From Candidatus Gastranaerophilales bacterium (GTDB taxonomy: Bacteria > Cyanobacteriota > Vampirovibrionia > Gastranaerophilales > Gastranaerophilaceae): 64,000 nucleotides of DNA. The position numbers were made by a program, and so were the translations under genes. How positions within the stretch are numbered: position 1 is the stretch's first letter; every line of letters begins with the position of its first letter. Below, in pieces: positions 666 to 52,135 of the stretch. The stretch is from assembly GCA_944325585.1 (NCBI GenBank), contig CALVAS010000001.1, forward strand, positions 7,283 through 71,282, read 5' to 3'. The notes under the pieces are model-generated. The model did not search any database, was not told where the DNA came from, and saw nothing but the letters and a program-made list of their open reading frames with translations.

Positions 666-694
666 TTGATTATTAATAATATTTCCGTTATAAT
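666..694 (+). promoter_or_regulatory. Sigma70-type promoter of mini-ORF locus 1 (TTGATT-17-TATAAT)
   Basis: -35 at 666..671, -10 at 689..694. Predicted TSS near 701, at GAGGGTAAG. Confidence 0.5.
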
Positions 695-770
695 AAATTT
701 GAGGGTAAGTTCCAAACACCTCCCCTGTCACAGACAGTTTACGAAGAAAACGACAGAAAGGAGGTGCATA

Positions 771-845
771 ATGAAAAGGCGAATAATAAAAGATGCCCTA
801 ACGCTAATAGGACATCTCTTACAAATTATTTCAATTTTCTTATAG
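771..845 (+). CDS. 24-aa hydrophobic mini-protein (type I toxin-like), copy 1: MKRRIIKDALTLIGHLLQIISIFL
   Basis: SD GGAGGTG (760..766) lies 4 nt before the ATG. 5'-UTR CACCTCC-c-CTGTC (717..729) is complementary to GACAG-aaa-GGAGGTG (752..766). Paralogous to the ORFs at 47024..47098 and 36847..36918. Confidence 0.6.
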   Translation: MKRRIIKDALTLIGHLLQIISIFL

Positions 846-895
846 GGAACGAAGAACGGGTTGGATGTAAACGGCATTCCAATCCGTTTCCCTAT
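783..895 (-). ncRNA. Antisense sRNA (antitoxin-like), copy 1
   Basis: Minus-strand promoter TTGACA(929..924)-16-TATAAT(907..902). Stem TAGGGAA...TTCCCTA. Terminator hairpin at 791..817 (inside the mini-ORF) followed by a U run. The ends are predicted, not measured. Confidence 0.5.
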
Positions 896-948
896 ATGTA
901 TATTATAACCTCTTTTTTGACTTTGTCAATCCATGTGCAAAAGTATGA

Positions 949-8786: not shown

Positions 8787-8877
8787 GGAGGAGTGCCAGA
8801 GCGGTTTATCGGAGCGGTCTTGAAAACCGTCGTACGTGACGAGCGTACCGTGGGTTCGAATCCCACCTCCTCCTCCA
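8787..8877 (+). tRNA. tRNA-Ser (anticodon UGA), class II with long variable arm, CCA encoded
   Basis: Acceptor GGAGGAG/CTCCTCC. Anticodon loop CTTGAAA. Variable-arm hairpin GTACG…CGTAC. T arm GTGGGTTCGAATCCCAC. Confidence 0.9.
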
Positions 8878-11690: not shown

Positions 11691-11807
11691 ATTATGTCAA
11701 GAAAATTTTACAAATCCGTACGCGGCAGTTGTAAAAAATAAGATGTCCAAATAGACAATTAGAATTTTTCATTGTATATTTTTATTAAAATTAAATACAA
11801 AAATTTT

Positions 11808-11890
11808 CTAGGGTTCCGCGGTTTTGCCGGCTGGTCCGAGAGAAAATTCACAAAAATTTTGTGTACACGGAAGGATAAAAACCTGGGAGA
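11808..11890 (+). promoter_or_regulatory. Guanidine-I riboswitch (ykkC-yxkD class, subtype 1)
   Basis: CTAGGGTTCCG…GGCTGGTCCGAGAG…ACACGGAAGGATAAAAACCTGGGAGA matches the ykkC consensus blocks. A Gdx/SugE gene follows. Confidence 0.85.
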
Positions 11891-11916
11891 TAATTTTATC
11901 TCTCAGGTTTTTTATA
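11882..11916 (+). terminator. Riboswitch expression-platform terminator
   Basis: CCTGGGAGAT-aatttt-ATCTCTCAGG plus T6. The 5' arm overlaps the aptamer 3' block, which predicts an ON switch. Confidence 0.75.
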
Positions 11917-34859: not shown

Positions 34860-36077
34860 TTATTCTAAAAACATATGATGCATTTTTTCTTTTTTTGTTT
34901 TCATATAGCGTTCATTATATGAATTGATTTCAGGTGTTAATCTTACCACATCATTGATTTTAAGTCCATAACCCGTCAGGGCTATTATTTTTTTAGGATT
35001 GTTGGTAATTAGATTGAAATTGTTAAAGCCTAAATCCGAGATTATTTGTGCACCCATTCCGTAATCGCGCAAATCTGCCTTGAATCCGAGTGACAAATTC
35101 GCTTCAACGGTATCCTGACCGCATTCCTGCAGTTTGTAGGCTTTAATTTTGTTAACAATACCTATTCCGCGGCCTTCATGACCTTTCATATAAATCAGCG
35201 CGCCTTTGCCGTAATCATTAATCATTTTTAATGCACTGTGAAGCTGGTAATTGCAATCGCATTTTAGACTGTGGAAAATATCGCCCGTCAGACATTCGCT
35301 GTGAACTCTTACGAGCGGAATTTTGTCACTGCCGTCATCTTTTACGAGAGCAACACTTTCCTGTCCTGTCAGATGGTTTACATATCCGTAGATTTCAAAC
35401 TCGCCGAAAGCTGTCGGAAGATGTGCTTCTGCTTCACGGGTTACGATTTTTTCATGTTTTAATCTGTATGCAATTAATTCCGCAACGGTTATAAATTTAA
35501 TTCCGTGTTTTTGAGCGAATTTGAAAAGTTCATCACGTTTTGCCATATGCCCGTCTTCGCCCATAATTTCACACATAGGGCCGGCCGGAATGTGTCCTGC
35601 AAGTTTGGCAAGGTCGACAACTGCTTCGGTGTGTCCGGTTCTTTGAAGAACTCCGCCTTTTCGTGCAACACAGGGGAAAAGATGTCCCGGGCGTCTTAAA
35701 TCTGACGGAACAGCATCGGGTGCAAGCGCAACTTCAATTGTTTTGGCTCTGTCAAATGCGGAAATTCCTGTTGTAACGCCGTATTTTTCCGCTGCATCAA
35801 TGCTTACAGTGAAAGCTGTTTTCATACCTTCGGTATTTTGTTCGACCATTTGAGGCAAATCAAGTTTTTCAGCCAATTCCGGTGAAATCGCAAGGCATAC
35901 AAGGCCTTTTGCGTTTTCAGCCATAAATTTAATGATTTCAGGTGTGACCATCTGGCCGGAACAAATTAAATCGCCTTCATTTTCACGATCTTCATCATCC
36001 GCAACGATAATCATTTTGCCGTTTTTAAAGTCCTCAATGGCTTCCTCAATTGTATTAAATTTCAATTCATCCATCAC
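34860..36077 (-). CDS. ribBA: Bifunctional DHBP synthase / GTP cyclohydrolase II
   Basis: DRENEGDLI and …[20 protein letters not shown]…. Confidence 0.92.
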
Positions 36078-36673
36078 ATAAACCCGTTTTCTTTTAAAAA
36101 TTCTTCCGTAATATTATTATTTTTCAGATATAAAAATTTTTCAACATATCTGCCCAGAATATCGGTTTCAATATTTACCGAATCTCCGGTTCTCAACTCT
36201 TTCAGATTGGTATTTTCAAGTGTATGAGGAATAATTGCAACACTGAATTTCCGATTTTCGTTTTTTGAAACCGTCAGGCTGACGCCGTTCACGGTAATCG
36301 AACCTTTATAAACAACATACTTATCAAGTTCCTGCGGCAATTCAAAAGTCATATTCCCGATATATTTTGCGGTTCCGTCAACATGTCCCTGAACAAAATG
36401 TCCGCCTATTCTTGTTGAAGGTGTCAATGCGCGTTCAAGATTTACGTTTCTGCCGGATTTAAAAGTTTTGAAAGTTGTTATTGAAACTGTTTCATTGCTA
36501 ACGTCTGCCGTAAAGCTGTTTGATGTCATATCCACAACAGTCTGGCAGCATCCGTCAATTGCAATGCTGTCTCCGATTTGTGTGTTTTCCAAAACTTTTT
36601 TACATTCGACAACGAGTTTTGCGCCGTCAAAACTTTTTACTCTGCCTATTTCCTCTACAATGCCTGTGAACAT
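36074..36673 (-). CDS. ribE: Riboflavin synthase alpha chain
   Basis: MFTGIVEEIG… with an internal repeat (…GDSIAIDG…/…SITVNGVSLTV…). Confidence 0.9.
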   Translation of the reverse strand: MFTGIVEEIGRVKSFDGAKLVVECKKVLENTQIGDSIAIDGCCQTVVDMTSNSFTADVSNETVSITTFKTFKSGRNVNLERALTPSTRIGGHFVQGHVDGTAKYIGNMTFELPQELDKYVVYKGSITVNGVSLTVSKNENRKFSVAIIPHTLENTNLKELRTGDSVNIETDILGRYVEKFLYLKNNNITEEFLKENGFM

Positions 36674-36846
36674 ACCCTTATATTAACATGAACACAATTT
36701 GTGTTTAAGACTAAATGAAATATTAATAATATTGACAGAAATCAAACAAAAATATATGGATAAATTGTGGGTAGGCCCTTATCACCTGTTATTCTGAAAG
36801 CACGAACTATAAATTTGTTAAACTTTTAGAAAGGGGGTGATATAAT

Positions 36847-36918
36847 GTGGAGATCAGTATAACTGAAAAAGCGTTAGTGCTTATCCTGCTGATAATACTA
36901 ACGCTTAAATTACTCTAA
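36847..36918 (+). CDS. 23-aa hydrophobic mini-protein (type I toxin-like), copy 3: (M)EISITEKALVLILLIILTLKLL
   Basis: GTG start 9 nt after the GAAAGGGGG SD, which is homologous to GAAAGGAGGTG of copies 1 and 2. Same length and polarity pattern. The sRNA terminator hairpin is embedded in the ORF. Confidence 0.5.
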   Translation: MEISITEKALVLILLIILTLKLL

Positions 36919-36962
36919 CTAGGGCTTTTAAAGGGGCAAGGAGGAACTTGCTCCGCCCTTAT
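36866..36962 (-). ncRNA. Antisense sRNA (antitoxin-like), copy 3
   Basis: Promoter TTGAAA(36996..36991)-16-TATAAT(36974..36969). 5' stem AGGGC…GCCCT. Terminator hairpin GCGTTAGT…ACTAACGC (36871..36904) plus U5. Confidence 0.5.
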
Positions 36963-37091
36963 TTACTTATTATAACATATTTTTTTATGATTTCAAGTGC
37001 GGTATAGTTTGGCGCGGTTCAAAAAGAAGCAAATTTTTCGACAGTGATTTCAGGACAACAAAATTCCTGACCGGGCAAATTCCGATTTCAA

Positions 37092-37120
37092 TTGCAATTA
37101 AAAAATTTTCACTCTATAAT
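37092..37120 (+). promoter_or_regulatory. tpiA promoter TTGCAA-17-TATAAT
   Basis: -35 at 37092..37097, -10 at 37115..37120. Confidence 0.55.
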
Positions 37121-37154
37121 ATCCATGTCGTGACAAAAAGATAGGAGAGAAATT

Positions 37155-37955
37155 ATGTCAAGAAAACCAATTATCGCAGGAAACTGGAAAATGAATCTTA
37201 TCCGTTCGGAAGCTGAAAAAGTTTTTGAAGGAATTAAAGAATTCGTAAATGACTACACAGCAGTTGAATTGCCGACAATTGTTATTGCACCGGTGTTCAC
37301 ATCAATCAGTGCTGTAAGAACAGTAAAATGCACATGCGGCTGCGGCGGCAATAAAATTTCAATTGCCGGACAAAACTGCCACTGGGAAAATTCAGGCGCT
37401 TACACAGGCGAAATTTCAGTAGAAATGTTAAAAGATGCCGGATGTGATTATGTAATTATCGGACACTCAGAAAGAAGACAATATTTCGCTGAAACTGATG
37501 AAATGATTAATAAAAAAGCAAAAGCAATTCTTGCAGGCGGTTTGATTCCGATTATCTGCTGCGGTGAAACTCTTGAACAAAGAGAAGCAGGAATTACCGA
37601 CAAATGGATTTCAGGCCAAATCAAAGCTGCTTTGGAAGGAATTTCTTCAGAAGACGTTGCAAAATCAGTTATTGCATACGAACCTATCTGGGCAATCGGA
37701 ACAGGCAAAACTTGTGACGCAGACGAAGCTAACAGAGTAATCGCAATGATTAGAAGTGTTGTTAAAGAAGTTGCAGGTGCTCAGGCTGCTGAATCTATCA
37801 GAATTCTTTACGGCGGATCAGTTAAACCTTCAACAATTGCAGAACAAATGTCAAAATCAGACATTGACGGCGCACTTGTTGGCGGAGCTTCTTTAAAAGC
37901 TGACAGCTTCAACGAAATCATTGCAAACACAATGAAAGTTGCGGTTGCAAAATAA
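37155..37955 (+). CDS. tpiA: Triosephosphate isomerase
   Basis: IIAGNWKMN, GHSERR and AYEPIWAIGTG motifs. Confidence 0.95.
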   Translation: MSRKPIIAGNWKMNLIRSEAEKVFEGIKEFVNDYTAVELPTIVIAPVFTSISAVRTVKCTCGCGGNKISIAGQNCHWENSGAYTGEISVEMLKDAGCDYVIIGHSERRQYFAETDEMINKKAKAILAGGLIPIICCGETLEQREAGITDKWISGQIKAALEGISSEDVAKSVIAYEPIWAIGTGKTCDADEANRVIAMIRSVVKEVAGAQAAESIRILYGGSVKPSTIAEQMSKSDIDGALVGGASLKADSFNEIIANTMKVAVAK

Positions 37956-39076: not shown

Positions 39077-39466
39077 ATGGCAGTACCTAAGAAAAGAACA
39101 GGACATTCCGCACAAGGACATAGAAGAAGCAACTGGAAAGCAACAAAACCGGAAACAACAAAATGCCCGAATTGCGGTGAAACAGTATTAACTCACACAG
39201 TCTGCACGGCTTGCGGAACTTACAAAGGCAAACCGGTAAGATTGAAAGACAGAGTTGAAGAAGTAAAGGTTGAAGAAAAGAAACCTGCAAAAAGAACTTC
39301 TAAAAAAGCTGAAACCAAAGCTGCAGCTGAAGAAACTAAAGTTGAAGCAGTAAAAGAAGAAGAAGTAAAACCTGAAGCTGAAGAAGCAGTTGAAGCAAAA
39401 ACTTCAGAAACAGAAGAAAAAACCGAAGCCAAAGCAGAAGAAGTTTCAGAAGACGAAGAAAAATAA
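39077..39466 (+). CDS. rpmF: 50S ribosomal protein L32 with a roughly 70-aa Lys/Glu/Ala-rich C-terminal extension
   Basis: MAVPKKRTGHSAQGHRRSNWK…CPNCGE…CTACGTYKGK, then KVEEKKPAKR…EEK. Confidence 0.88.
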   Translation: MAVPKKRTGHSAQGHRRSNWKATKPETTKCPNCGETVLTHTVCTACGTYKGKPVRLKDRVEEVKVEEKKPAKRTSKKAETKAAAEETKVEAVKEEEVKPEAEEAVEAKTSETEEKTEAKAEEVSEDEEK

Positions 39467-46873: not shown

Positions 46874-46954
46874 GAGAAATTTCGTCTGAATATTAAATCT
46901 TGCGCAACTATATGACTAAAGTTTGAAAAAAGATAATTCGATTATCCTAACCAC

Positions 46955-46982
46955 TTGAAATTTATAAAAAGTAAGTTATAAT
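46955..46982 (+). promoter_or_regulatory. Promoter of antisense sRNA copy 2 (TTGAAA-16-TATAAT)
   Basis: -35 at 46955..46960, -10 at 46977..46982. Confidence 0.55.
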
Positions 46983-46988
46983 AAATAT

Positions 46989-47085
46989 AGGGTGGGTGCT
47001 CTGCTAAGCACCCGTTACAGACCCTAAATGAATAACGAAATTATTTGTAAAAAGAGCCCTACTGCATTTAGGACTCTTTTTATTA
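46989..47085 (+). ncRNA. Antisense sRNA (antitoxin-like), copy 2
   Basis: 5' stem TAGGGT…ACCCTA enclosing GGGTGC…GCACCC. Hairpin AGAGCCCTA…TAGGACTCT (47053..47077) plus a U run. Fully antisense to the 3' two-thirds of the mini-ORF. Confidence 0.5.
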
Positions 47086-47098
47086 TGTCCGTTTTCAT
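47024..47098 (-). CDS. 24-aa hydrophobic mini-protein (type I toxin-like), copy 2: MKTDIIKRVLNAVGLFLQIISLFI
   Basis: SD GGAAAGGAGGTGA lies 7 nt before the ATG. 5'-UTR CCCTCC (complement of 47150..47155) is anti-SD. 13/24 residues are identical to copy 1. Confidence 0.55.
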   Translation of the reverse strand: MKTDIIKRVLNAVGLFLQIISLFI

Positions 47099-47186
47099 CT
47101 TCTCACCTCCTTTCCACCCATGTTACAGTATAGTGTTTGATGTGTAGTTGGAGGGATTCGGTCTTACCCTATATTAAATTATCAGA

Positions 47187-51736: not shown

Positions 51737-52135
51737 GGGGACGTTTTGGATTTGACAGGATGTTTCGGTTGGAACAGGCTGCGGGTCCGTGCGCTGTTCA
51801 CGGTTATCAACGAGCAAAACAAATTAAATGCTAACAACGTAGTTGAAGCAGACTTCAGCAGAGCATATGCAAAAGCTGCCTAGTTTGCGATTATAGCTAC
51901 TCATAGAGCCCAGCTTGCCGGTTTTATGGGTCCATTATGCAAGCGCAGTACGTCAATGACGGTAGACGTATCCAGATAACCGTCAGGGGTTTAGAGTTTC
52001 CCTTAAATAAAACCTTGGGCTGATTTATAAGGTTCTGATTTTCCCCCGAATCAGCCGAGAAAATGAAAATCTACACTCGTAGACGTCGGTTACAATCCAT
52101 TTTGGACAGGGGTTCGACTCCCCTCGTCTCCACCA
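51737..52135 (+). ncRNA. ssrA: tmRNA (SsrA); tag reading frame 51830..51883 encodes ANNVVEADFSRAYAKAA*
   Basis: 5' GGGGACG pairs with 3' CGTCTCC-A-CCA, including the G3:U pair. T-arm GGGGTTCGACTCCCC. Resume codon GCT followed by an ANN… tag. Confidence 0.92.

Follow-up and report, generated by a model that had tools for sequence, protein, structure and literature searches.

A putative 3′-overlapping type I toxin-antitoxin-like module between ribE and tpiA of a Candidatus Gastranaerophilales genome, and its relatives

We analyzed a stretch of 64,000 nucleotides (nt) from a bacterium of the Candidatus Gastranaerophilales, non-photosynthetic relatives of cyanobacteria (assembly GCA_944325585.1, contig CALVAS010000001.1, positions 7,283 to 71,282 of the forward strand), referred to throughout as the window, and focused on the intergenic region between ribE and tpiA, in which no gene was called in any of six assemblies. 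An earlier note, made by reading the letters of this DNA, had described positions 36732-36996 as the third copy of a type I toxin-antitoxin (TA)-like module, and all of the coordinates that it gave for copy 3 were recovered on the window sequence. The intergenic stretch very probably comprises a tiny membrane-peptide gene facing an antisense small RNA (sRNA) gene; we infer both its transcription and the toxicity of the peptide. The elements of copy 3 are as follows, where SD is the Shine-Dalgarno sequence, UTR an untranslated region, MFE minimum free energy, ORF an open reading frame and aa amino acids.

36732..36760, plus strand: candidate toxin-side promoter, with the -35 box TTGACA (36732-37), a 17-nt spacer and a weak -10 box TATGGA (36755-60)
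36769..36775, plus strand: GGGTAGG, the conserved 5′ end of the putative toxin mRNA, with the CCC after the 3′ hairpin as its predicted partner (5′-3′ closure)
36780..36786, plus strand: anti-SD TATCACC, pairing with GGTGATA at the SD and start codon in the MFE fold
36794..36829, plus strand: 5′-UTR stem-loop of the MFE fold, with the outer stem CTGAAAG (36794-800) / CTTTTAG (36823-29)
36803-36817, plus strand: apical hairpin of the 5′-UTR stem-loop, CGAA/TTTG with the loop CTATAAA
36829-36840, plus strand: SD box GAAAGGGGGTGA, seen in the sequence, the core of which, GAAAGGGGGTG (36829..36839), was used in the family search pattern
36847..36918, plus strand: GTG-initiated 23-aa ORF MEISITEKALVLILLIILTLKLL from the ORF listing, a putative membrane toxin of subfamily B
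36866..36905, minus strand: predicted intrinsic terminator at which the antisense sRNA would end, inside toxin codons 7-20, with its hairpin at 36870-36905 and then U5 (36870..36866)
36920..36968, plus strand: predicted 3′ hairpin/terminator of the toxin mRNA, with the outer stem AGGGC (36921-25)/GCCCT (36955-59) around a GC hairpin (36933-36954) and a T-rich tail
36866..36962, minus strand: predicted antisense sRNA and antitoxin candidate of ~97 nt, its start placed 7 nt after the -10 box and its end at the U-run
36969..36996, minus strand: candidate antisense promoter, TTGAAA (36996..36991), a 16-nt spacer and TATAAT (36974..36969), with TG before the -10 box

The DNA of the toxin 3′ hairpin (36920..36968) also encodes the 5′ stem-loop of the sRNA, which is co-directional with ribE and ends ~190 nt short of the ribE start codon. 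Copy 3 additionally carries two copies of a direct repeat, CTTTTAGAAAGGGG at 36823-36836 and CTTTTAAAGGGG at 36925-36936. The motif GAAAGGRGGTG occurred three times in the window against 0.03 expected, and nhmmer returned exactly three full-length copies of the module in it.

Relatives were sought by scanning the pattern GAAAGGRGGTG-N65-95-TAGGG-N30-60-ATTATAAC over one genome per GTDB species. The strict pattern matched 111 stretches in about 80 assemblies, with about 8 matches estimated to arise by chance under uniform base composition, and the comparisons below concern 115 distinct elements unless a subfamily is named. A hidden Markov model (HMM) built from these 115 exposed 27 further copies in the fetched loci, many of them in tandem arrays; up to four lay in one intergenic region (four at L010:5256-6549, and three each at L082:4957-5772 and L045:519-1362).

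GTG 36847 is the only possible start of the copy 3 ORF, since a TGA codon stands in frame at 36838-40. The start follows GAAAGGGGGTG by 7 nt, and, as had been read from the window alone, the 23-aa frame ends in a TAA stop (36916-18) followed by CTAGGG. Whether such frames are coding was assessed on features absent from the search pattern. An ATG, GTG or TTG ORF of at least 15 aa began 3-10 nt after the SD box in all 115 elements, measured 20-29 aa in 114 of them, and stopped at the TAG of TAGGG in 106, while the +1 frame was open in none. The family had 98 distinct peptides. T occupied codon position 2 in 72% of cases versus 23-24% at positions 1 and 3 (last 15 codons). Moreover, substitutions within subfamilies were fewest at position 2 (994, 513 and 1187 at positions 1, 2 and 3), and 997 of 1305 non-synonymous changes retained the hydrophobic or polar class of the residue. 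The earlier note had held that loss of the GTG frame with retention of the RNA structure would point to a purely RNA element; what we found instead was an intact frame in 6/6 strain-level assemblies of the ribE-tpiA locus and in the orthologous slots of other species. One of these strains, L003, differed by ~10 substitutions and encoded MEISITEKALIIILLIIIALKLHI, with both the hydrophobicity and the internal hairpin preserved. The family comparison thereby gives strong support to the predicted coding nature of the ORF. The hydrophobic core of the copy 3 peptide, ALVLILLIILTL, had a mean Eisenberg hydrophobicity (H) of 0.56, so that copy 3 has what is looked for in a type I TA locus, namely a small ORF (below some 60-70 aa) for a hydrophobic or membrane peptide with its own ribosome-binding site.

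The single ORF outside the common length range belonged to the element at L086:7233-7477, which was frameshifted to 44 aa (MTRILKTVITVIITVLQISFIGYRV...), while its close relatives L012 and L100 retained the 23-aa ORF; this member is probably a decaying copy. A second, out-of-frame ATG at 36845 opens the five-codon ORF MWRSV in copy 3. The earlier note had set this ORF aside as probably irrelevant, and we agree, as it was conserved in neither length nor sequence; MWRSV was rejected as a product, L034 and L065 having ATG-TGA in its place and L009 an ORF of 11 codons. The arrangement ATGTG, an out-of-frame ATG two bases before the GTG, was present in 6/9 GTG-started members of subfamily B (window 36845-36862, L034, L065, L009, L029 and L043; alignment A4), where the out-of-frame ORFs spanned 1-11 codons. 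This ATG could be a decoy start that lowers translation of the toxin. A leader peptide or attenuator of tpiA was likewise rejected as an identity for the copy 3 ORF, since no gene follows copies 1 and 2 in the same direction.

On the minus strand of copy 3, the promoter noted before, TTGAAA-16-TATAAT (36996..36969), was borne out with an 11/12 match. Family-wide, a -35 box (TTGAAA or TTGACA, at least 5/6) lay 16-17 nt from the antisense -10 box in 98/115 elements; the -35 box was not part of the search pattern, whereas the -10 box was. A hairpin and U-run forming a predicted antisense terminator inside the ORF were likewise present in 98/115 elements, with the U-run always starting opposite toxin codons 6-8, and the predicted sRNAs had a median length of 95 nt (range 84-111). 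The minus-strand RNA of copy 3 (36962..36866) folded as had been proposed, with the 5′ stem AGGGC/GCCCT around a GC hairpin followed by the terminator hairpin and U5 (MFE -31.5 kcal/mol, z = -3.5), and with UUUAAAA in an unpaired internal loop. It is a perfect complement of toxin codons 7-23 and the 3′ UTR. Compensatory changes were seen in the ORF-internal hairpin among the 36 aligned sequences of subfamily B, and the G-U pairs of this hairpin were possible only on the antisense strand in 33 cases versus only on the sense strand in 12, an asymmetry by which we assign this helix to the sRNA. RNAalifold gave no consensus for 79 sRNAs drawn from all subfamilies, in which MAFFT had misaligned the variable inner hairpins, and worked when restricted to subfamily B. 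The minus strand is thus predicted in silico to carry an antisense RNA gene that has a promoter and a terminator of its own and whose product is complementary to the toxin mRNA.

For the sense strand, the earlier note had called the toxin-side promoter unclear, finding no well-spaced -10 box for the TTGACA at 36732. That assessment no longer stands, as TTGACA-17-TATGGA lies 8 nt upstream of the GGGTAGG 5′ end. One G is missing from L001, L003 and L005 among the sister strains, where the promoter reads TTGACA-17-TATGAT (alignment A2), while the TATGGA allele is shared by the window, L002, L004 and L006; with three of six sister strains reading TATGAT, the window promoter appears to be a weakened allele of a normal one. 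In most elements, GGGTA was found 45-70 nt upstream of the SD. A -10 box matching at least 5/6 lay 5-10 nt upstream of GGGTA(A/G)G in 54/82 elements, 29 of them with an exact TATAAT, and a full TTGACA -35 box was often present on the toxin side.

The sense RNA of copy 3 (36768-36962) was predicted to fold at -70.1 kcal/mol (z = -6.2), and the pairing of TATCACC with GGTGATA that had been proposed was seen in this MFE fold. Across the family, the probability that the SD core is paired was 0.90, versus 0.70 with shuffled UTRs (p = 6.5e-15), and its partner was a pyrimidine tract 16-24 nt from the 5′ end. A fold that sequesters the SD, as expected of a type I toxin mRNA in which translation is limited, was thus obtained in silico. 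Four helices were supported by RNAalifold and by pair counts, specifically the 5′ GGG/CCC helix, the apical 5′-UTR hairpin, the ORF-internal hairpin, and the 3′ hairpin. The first, between the 5′ GGG and the CCC after the 3′ hairpin, was paired in 98% of cases and showed compensatory changes in L010 (GGAGC/GCTCC) and L114 (AGGAC/GTCCT). The apical 5′-UTR hairpin (helix 2) covaried through CG/AU, AU/CG and AU/GC exchanges with double changes at 3/3 pairs, and covariation of the outer 5′-UTR stem was judged by eye (alignment A4). Helices 5 and 6, which form the 3′ hairpin, had double changes at 7/7 pairs. In subfamily B, 89.5% of helix cells were paired versus 36-46% in slid controls, 155 cells showed double changes versus 16-29, and the covariation score was 0.42 versus about 0.1. 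A 3′ hairpin of -8 kcal/mol or lower, followed by 10 nt of which at least 5 are T, was present in 110/114 elements, and a terminator-like site was detected at that of copy 3. The lean of its G-U pairs (16 sense-only versus 6 antisense-only) together with the T-rich tail points to a terminator of the toxin mRNA, the complement of which forms the 5′ stem-loop of the sRNA.

Nearly all matches to the pattern were labelled Candidatus Gastranaerophilales, Melainabacteria, Vampirovibrio, or "Cyanobacteria bacterium UBA", and the samples came from human, rabbit, chicken, reindeer, and goat, along with some environmental sources; a protein identical to TpiA was also present on human-gut metagenome contigs. 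The few matches labelled Firmicutes or Bacteroidetes had elements near-identical to those of Melainabacteria, and we attribute these labels to mistakes in binning or naming. Seven further pattern matches were on IMG/VR viral contigs, while blastn against a plasmid collection found no match. One IMG/VR member, MDNRIIKAAITAIIAALKIIILYL (L123:1166-1322; also L120, L121 and L124), was located inside a contractile-tail gene cluster, between tail sheath/tube-like genes and the tape-measure gene, a position that suggests it is borne by a phage, prophage, or tailocin.

The two paralogues in the window both belong to subfamily A and are laid out as follows.

687..932, plus strand: copy 1, with a -10 box at 689-694, GGGTAAG at 703-709 and the SD at 756-766
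771-845, plus strand: copy 1 ORF, MKRRIIKDALTLIGHLLQIISIFL
929..902, minus strand: candidate antisense promoter of copy 1, TTGACA (929..924), a 16-nt spacer and TATAAT (907..902)
46948..47183, minus strand: copy 2, with the SD at 47114..47104
47098..47024, minus strand: copy 2 ORF, MKTDIIKRVLNAVGLFLQIISLFI
46955-46982, plus strand: candidate antisense promoter of copy 2, TTGAAA (46955-60), a 16-nt spacer and TATAAT (46977-82)

Copy 3 had been described as having the architecture of copies 1 and 2. The architecture is indeed shared, but the peptide is of another physico-chemical class, uniformly hydrophobic in copy 3 and amphipathic in the other two. Specifically, hydrophobic moments (muH) were 0.32-0.43 in subfamilies A, D, E and F, the amphipathic class of copies 1 and 2, versus 0.10-0.13 in subfamilies B and C, the uniformly hydrophobic class of copy 3. 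The same intergenic slots were filled by different subfamilies in related species. At the ribE-tpiA slot, L043 and L083 had B-type elements, L052 had one of C-type, and L049 had a further copy; the slot of copy 1 held A, E or B types in relatives. In the slot of copy 2, L061 had a helicase 99.5% identical to that of the window and identical 5′ and 3′ UTRs around a D-type ORF, the internal hairpin of which was restored by compensatory changes. Aligning window 46948-47183 (minus strand) with L061:4170-4470 and L054:5105-5410 (alignment A5) showed UTRs that were identical or near-identical and a ~65-nt coding part that changed from A-type to D-type. On this alignment, the difference between L061 and the window is read as an exchange of the ORF cassette alone between paralogous modules.

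Database searches did not connect these elements to described families. Rfam at gathering thresholds found no antitoxin family in the whole window, only transfer-messenger RNA (tmRNA), a guanidine-I riboswitch and tRNA, and when 36650-37160 was scanned with the threshold relaxed to E = 10, all matches were at chance level. Ten representative peptides searched against Pfam and NCBIfam at E up to 10 matched no toxin family, a negative limited by the fact that ShoB itself has no model in either. A PDB profile search of the peptides returned nothing relevant, PHROGs only a chance-level holin match (E = 0.12) for one F-type peptide, and the literature consulted no publication connecting type I TA systems with Melainabacteria or Gastranaerophilales.

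According to a 2025 paper, the type I TA systems known until then were confined to Proteobacteria, Firmicutes and Tenericutes, apart from a single candidate in Microcystis (PMC12390103). The latter, MsoT1/MsoA1 of the photosynthetic cyanobacterium Microcystis aeruginosa, was presented there as the first type I TA candidate in the phylum Cyanobacteria; MsoT1 has 63 aa, two predicted membrane helices and an isoelectric point of 11 (PMC12390103). MsoA1 resembles the sRNAs described here in that its predicted binding site comprises the 3′ end of the coding sequence and the 3′ UTR (PMC12390103), whereas the sequence of MsoT1 is unrelated to the family peptides. The organization of the family is that of TxpA/RatA, BsrG/SR4, BsrE/SR5 and YonT/SR6 of Bacillus subtilis and SprG/SprF of Staphylococcus aureus; in TxpA/RatA, BsrE/G/H, YonT and SprG/SprF, the genes are convergent and the antisense RNA lies on the 3′ side, overlapping the 3′ UTR and part of the ORF (PMC8594479). 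These Gram-positive systems also share a small hydrophobic toxin and a structured mRNA with a partly sequestered SD. They differ from the elements described here in that the family peptides are much shorter, at 21-29 aa, and reversed in polarity, with a charged N-terminus and a hydrophobic C-terminus that runs up to the stop. BsrG and TxpA fall in the range of 38-59 aa. Furthermore, the predicted sRNA terminator of the family is embedded in the toxin ORF, and the hosts are Firmicutes in the one case versus Melainabacteria here, with no match in Rfam, Pfam or NCBIfam.

Among known toxins, ShoB of Escherichia coli (MTDCRYLIKRVIKIIIAVLQLILLFL, sequence verified) aligned to subfamily E and A peptides through the C-terminus. 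The best peptide, MRKEIIKSAIKVLIALLNLIIIFL, was identical to it at 11/20 positions (score 59, z = 5.8 against shuffles), while nine other type I toxins reached z <= 2.8; peptides this short cannot separate homology from convergence. ShoB-like peptides are encoded at window 771-845 and 47098..47024 (copies 1 and 2) and by subfamily E in L093, L111 and L045. Both ShoB and these peptides have about 24-26 aa, basic N-terminal residues, and no charged C-terminal tail. Overexpressed ShoB depolarizes the membrane and is toxic in E. coli (PMC8309996), and the ShoB likeness of the sister subfamilies would, by analogy, link the family to a proven toxin. Whereas the family sRNA is encoded convergently and covers the 3′ half of its toxin mRNA, OhsC is transcribed divergently and pairs with the shoB 5′ UTR (PMC2887945, PMC8594479), and by this geometry the module is not a member of ShoB/OhsC. 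As in hok/Sok and AapA1/IsoA1, 5′-3′ pairing of the mRNA ends is predicted and the SD is sequestered, from which the primary toxin transcript looks translationally inert; the antitoxins of those two systems, however, pair at the 5′ side, their peptides and RNAs are unrelated, and no sign of 3′ processing emerged for the family. Judged from these sequence comparisons, we regard the elements as a new family of type I TA-like modules, within a known class and in a lineage where none was known.

We consider it probable that window 36732-36996 is one copy of a cis-antisense, 3′-overlapping type I TA-like module. The combination recognized in the earlier note, an SD-led hydrophobic ORF, a convergent sRNA, an ORF-embedded terminator, and an SD-sequestering 5′ UTR, is strongly supported by the comparison of 115 elements, and the two predicted promoters and two predicted terminators, a coding ORF, a sequestered SD and covarying helices are each established in silico and comparatively. 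Under the proposed mechanism, a sense transcript of about 195 nt would start near 36768, end after the 3′ hairpin near 36965, and encode the 23-aa membrane peptide. This mRNA would be quiet as transcribed, with the anti-SD TATCACC on the SD and start codon, the long 5′-UTR stem-loop, and the 5′ GGG held by the 3′ CCC. The convergent promoter at 36996..36969 would produce the ~97-nt sRNA with a 5′ stem-loop complementary to the toxin 3′ hairpin, and the two RNAs would most likely form an extended duplex, nucleated where loops are complementary or at the unpaired UUUAAAA. The toxin mRNA would then undergo double-strand-specific cleavage and decay, and/or be locked in the inactive fold; we infer the duplex-dependent decay. 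When the level of the sRNA falls, the peptide would be made and insert into the membrane.

Several points weigh against this interpretation. The copy 3 peptide has 23 aa with only ~13 contiguous hydrophobic residues, its score against ShoB (28) is at null level, and the toxin -10 box of the window strain (TATGGA) is poor. The conservation of I-[TI]-[EK]-K-A-L is forced by the U-tract and stem of the antisense terminator; as this segment is doubly constrained, it is not independent evidence of protein function. The taxonomic restriction may partly reflect the search, whose pattern was derived from this window, and the expression of both RNAs and the toxicity of the peptide are presumed. A non-toxic small membrane protein, that is, a regulatory or structural micro-protein whose level is tuned by the cis-antisense RNA, would fit the evidence for coding and for an antisense gene equally well, and pairs of this kind encoding non-toxic small proteins are known (for example, bioRxiv 10.1101/2025.10.28.685009). 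We nevertheless hold it unlikely, given the heavy translational silencing typical of type I toxins (SD sequestration and frequent GTG or TTG starts), the multi-copy and tandem organization, the rapid turnover of peptides and their swapping between loci, the member inside a phage tail gene cluster, and the ShoB-like sister peptides. Indeed, multi-copy and tandem elements, subfamily turnover at each slot, and ORF swapping are behaviors typical of type I TA loci. Terminators facing both ways and repeated occurrence in intergenic slots of a genome are also what a purely RNA or DNA element with an incidental ORF would show, be it a bidirectional terminator, an insulator, or a repeat like a repetitive extragenic palindrome or a miniature inverted-repeat transposable element. 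That explanation is very improbable, as RNA structure alone does not account for the 3-nt periodicity, the frame-specific openness, and the SD-start spacing, nor would it predict two conserved promoters facing each other or the change of the ORF alone between identical flanks in L061 and the window; moreover, no terminal inverted repeats or target duplications were seen.

Within the type I TA-like interpretation, the earlier note had proposed that the direct repeat allows the sRNA to occlude the SD. Both repeat copies, CTTTTA(G)AAAGGGG and CTTTTAAAGGGG, are indeed present in copy 3, but direct SD occlusion by them was not supported. Under this proposal, the sRNA segment CCCCUUUAAAAG would pair in trans with CUUUUAGAAAGGGG, in the manner of SprA1AS or Fst RNA II, and the unpaired UUUAAAA in the sRNA internal loop would be available for it. 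In a windowed duplex test, which replaced a whole-length RNAduplex that was uninformative since it allowed huge loops, pairing of the sRNA to the translation-initiation region was not above chance against shuffles in copies 1-3; that of copy 3 was borderline better (p about 0.075), while copies 1 and 2 gave p about 0.2 and cognate pairs did no better than non-cognate ones. Furthermore, CTTTTAG (36823-29) is the 3′ strand of the intramolecular 5′-UTR stem with CTGAAAG (36794-800), and in subfamily B the bases upstream of the SD covaried with that UTR strand (CTGAAAG/CTTTCAG, TGCGG/CCGCA and CTTTACGG/CTGTAAAG). Whether the SD read GGGGG or GGAGG was not mirrored by the AAAGGGG variant in the 3′ UTR, nor was the repeat conserved in subfamily B (alignment A4). 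SD occlusion in trans is thus a doubtful account, to which we assign little weight, and action via direct repeats near the translation-initiation region, as in Fst/RNA II (par) and SprA1/SprA1AS, would separate those systems from the one described here. With the intramolecular stem and the non-significant pairing, a plain cis mechanism is preferred, in which an extended duplex would form over the ~97-nt overlap.

The broader proposition, that the elements constitute an order-wide, undescribed type I TA family of Gastranaerophilales/Melainabacteria with a dual-coded terminator, exchange of a cassette comprising the ORF and the 3′ half of the sRNA, and amphipathic subfamilies related to ShoB, is put forward tentatively, its parts together being somewhat less probable than their failure. 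If it holds, the U-tract of the antitoxin terminator would double as conserved Lys/Glu codons and its stem as the hydrophobic core, and each cassette exchange would re-set specificity automatically, the antitoxin being cis-encoded. ShoB-type toxins would then have a much wider distribution than has been assumed, and here they would be combined with an entirely different antitoxin geometry. The >140 copies in uncultured gut Melainabacteria would extend the type I TA class to a new lineage. The 98 distinct peptides and their matched RNAs would constitute a natural data set for the co-evolution of a toxin ORF and an antisense terminator on the same bases, for toxin-cassette swapping between loci, and for asking whether ShoB/Ibs-like peptides as short as 21-24 aa represent a solution that recurs. 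These modules are invisible to gene callers, and the pattern and HMM built herein allow them to be annotated.

Other features of the window were recorded alongside. No flavin mononucleotide riboswitch was detected upstream of the ribE-ribBA genes (window 36074-36760). A guanidine-I riboswitch aptamer is at 11797-11891 on the plus strand (Rfam RF00442, 82 bits versus a gathering score of 63), and the same strand carries a tRNA with a long variable arm (8787-8874) and a tmRNA gene (51737-52135; RF00023, 113 bits). Ribosomal protein L32 is encoded at 39077-39466 on the plus strand (129 aa; Pfam Ribosomal_L32p in the matching loci) and has a long, acidic, Lys/Glu/Ala-rich C-terminal extension.

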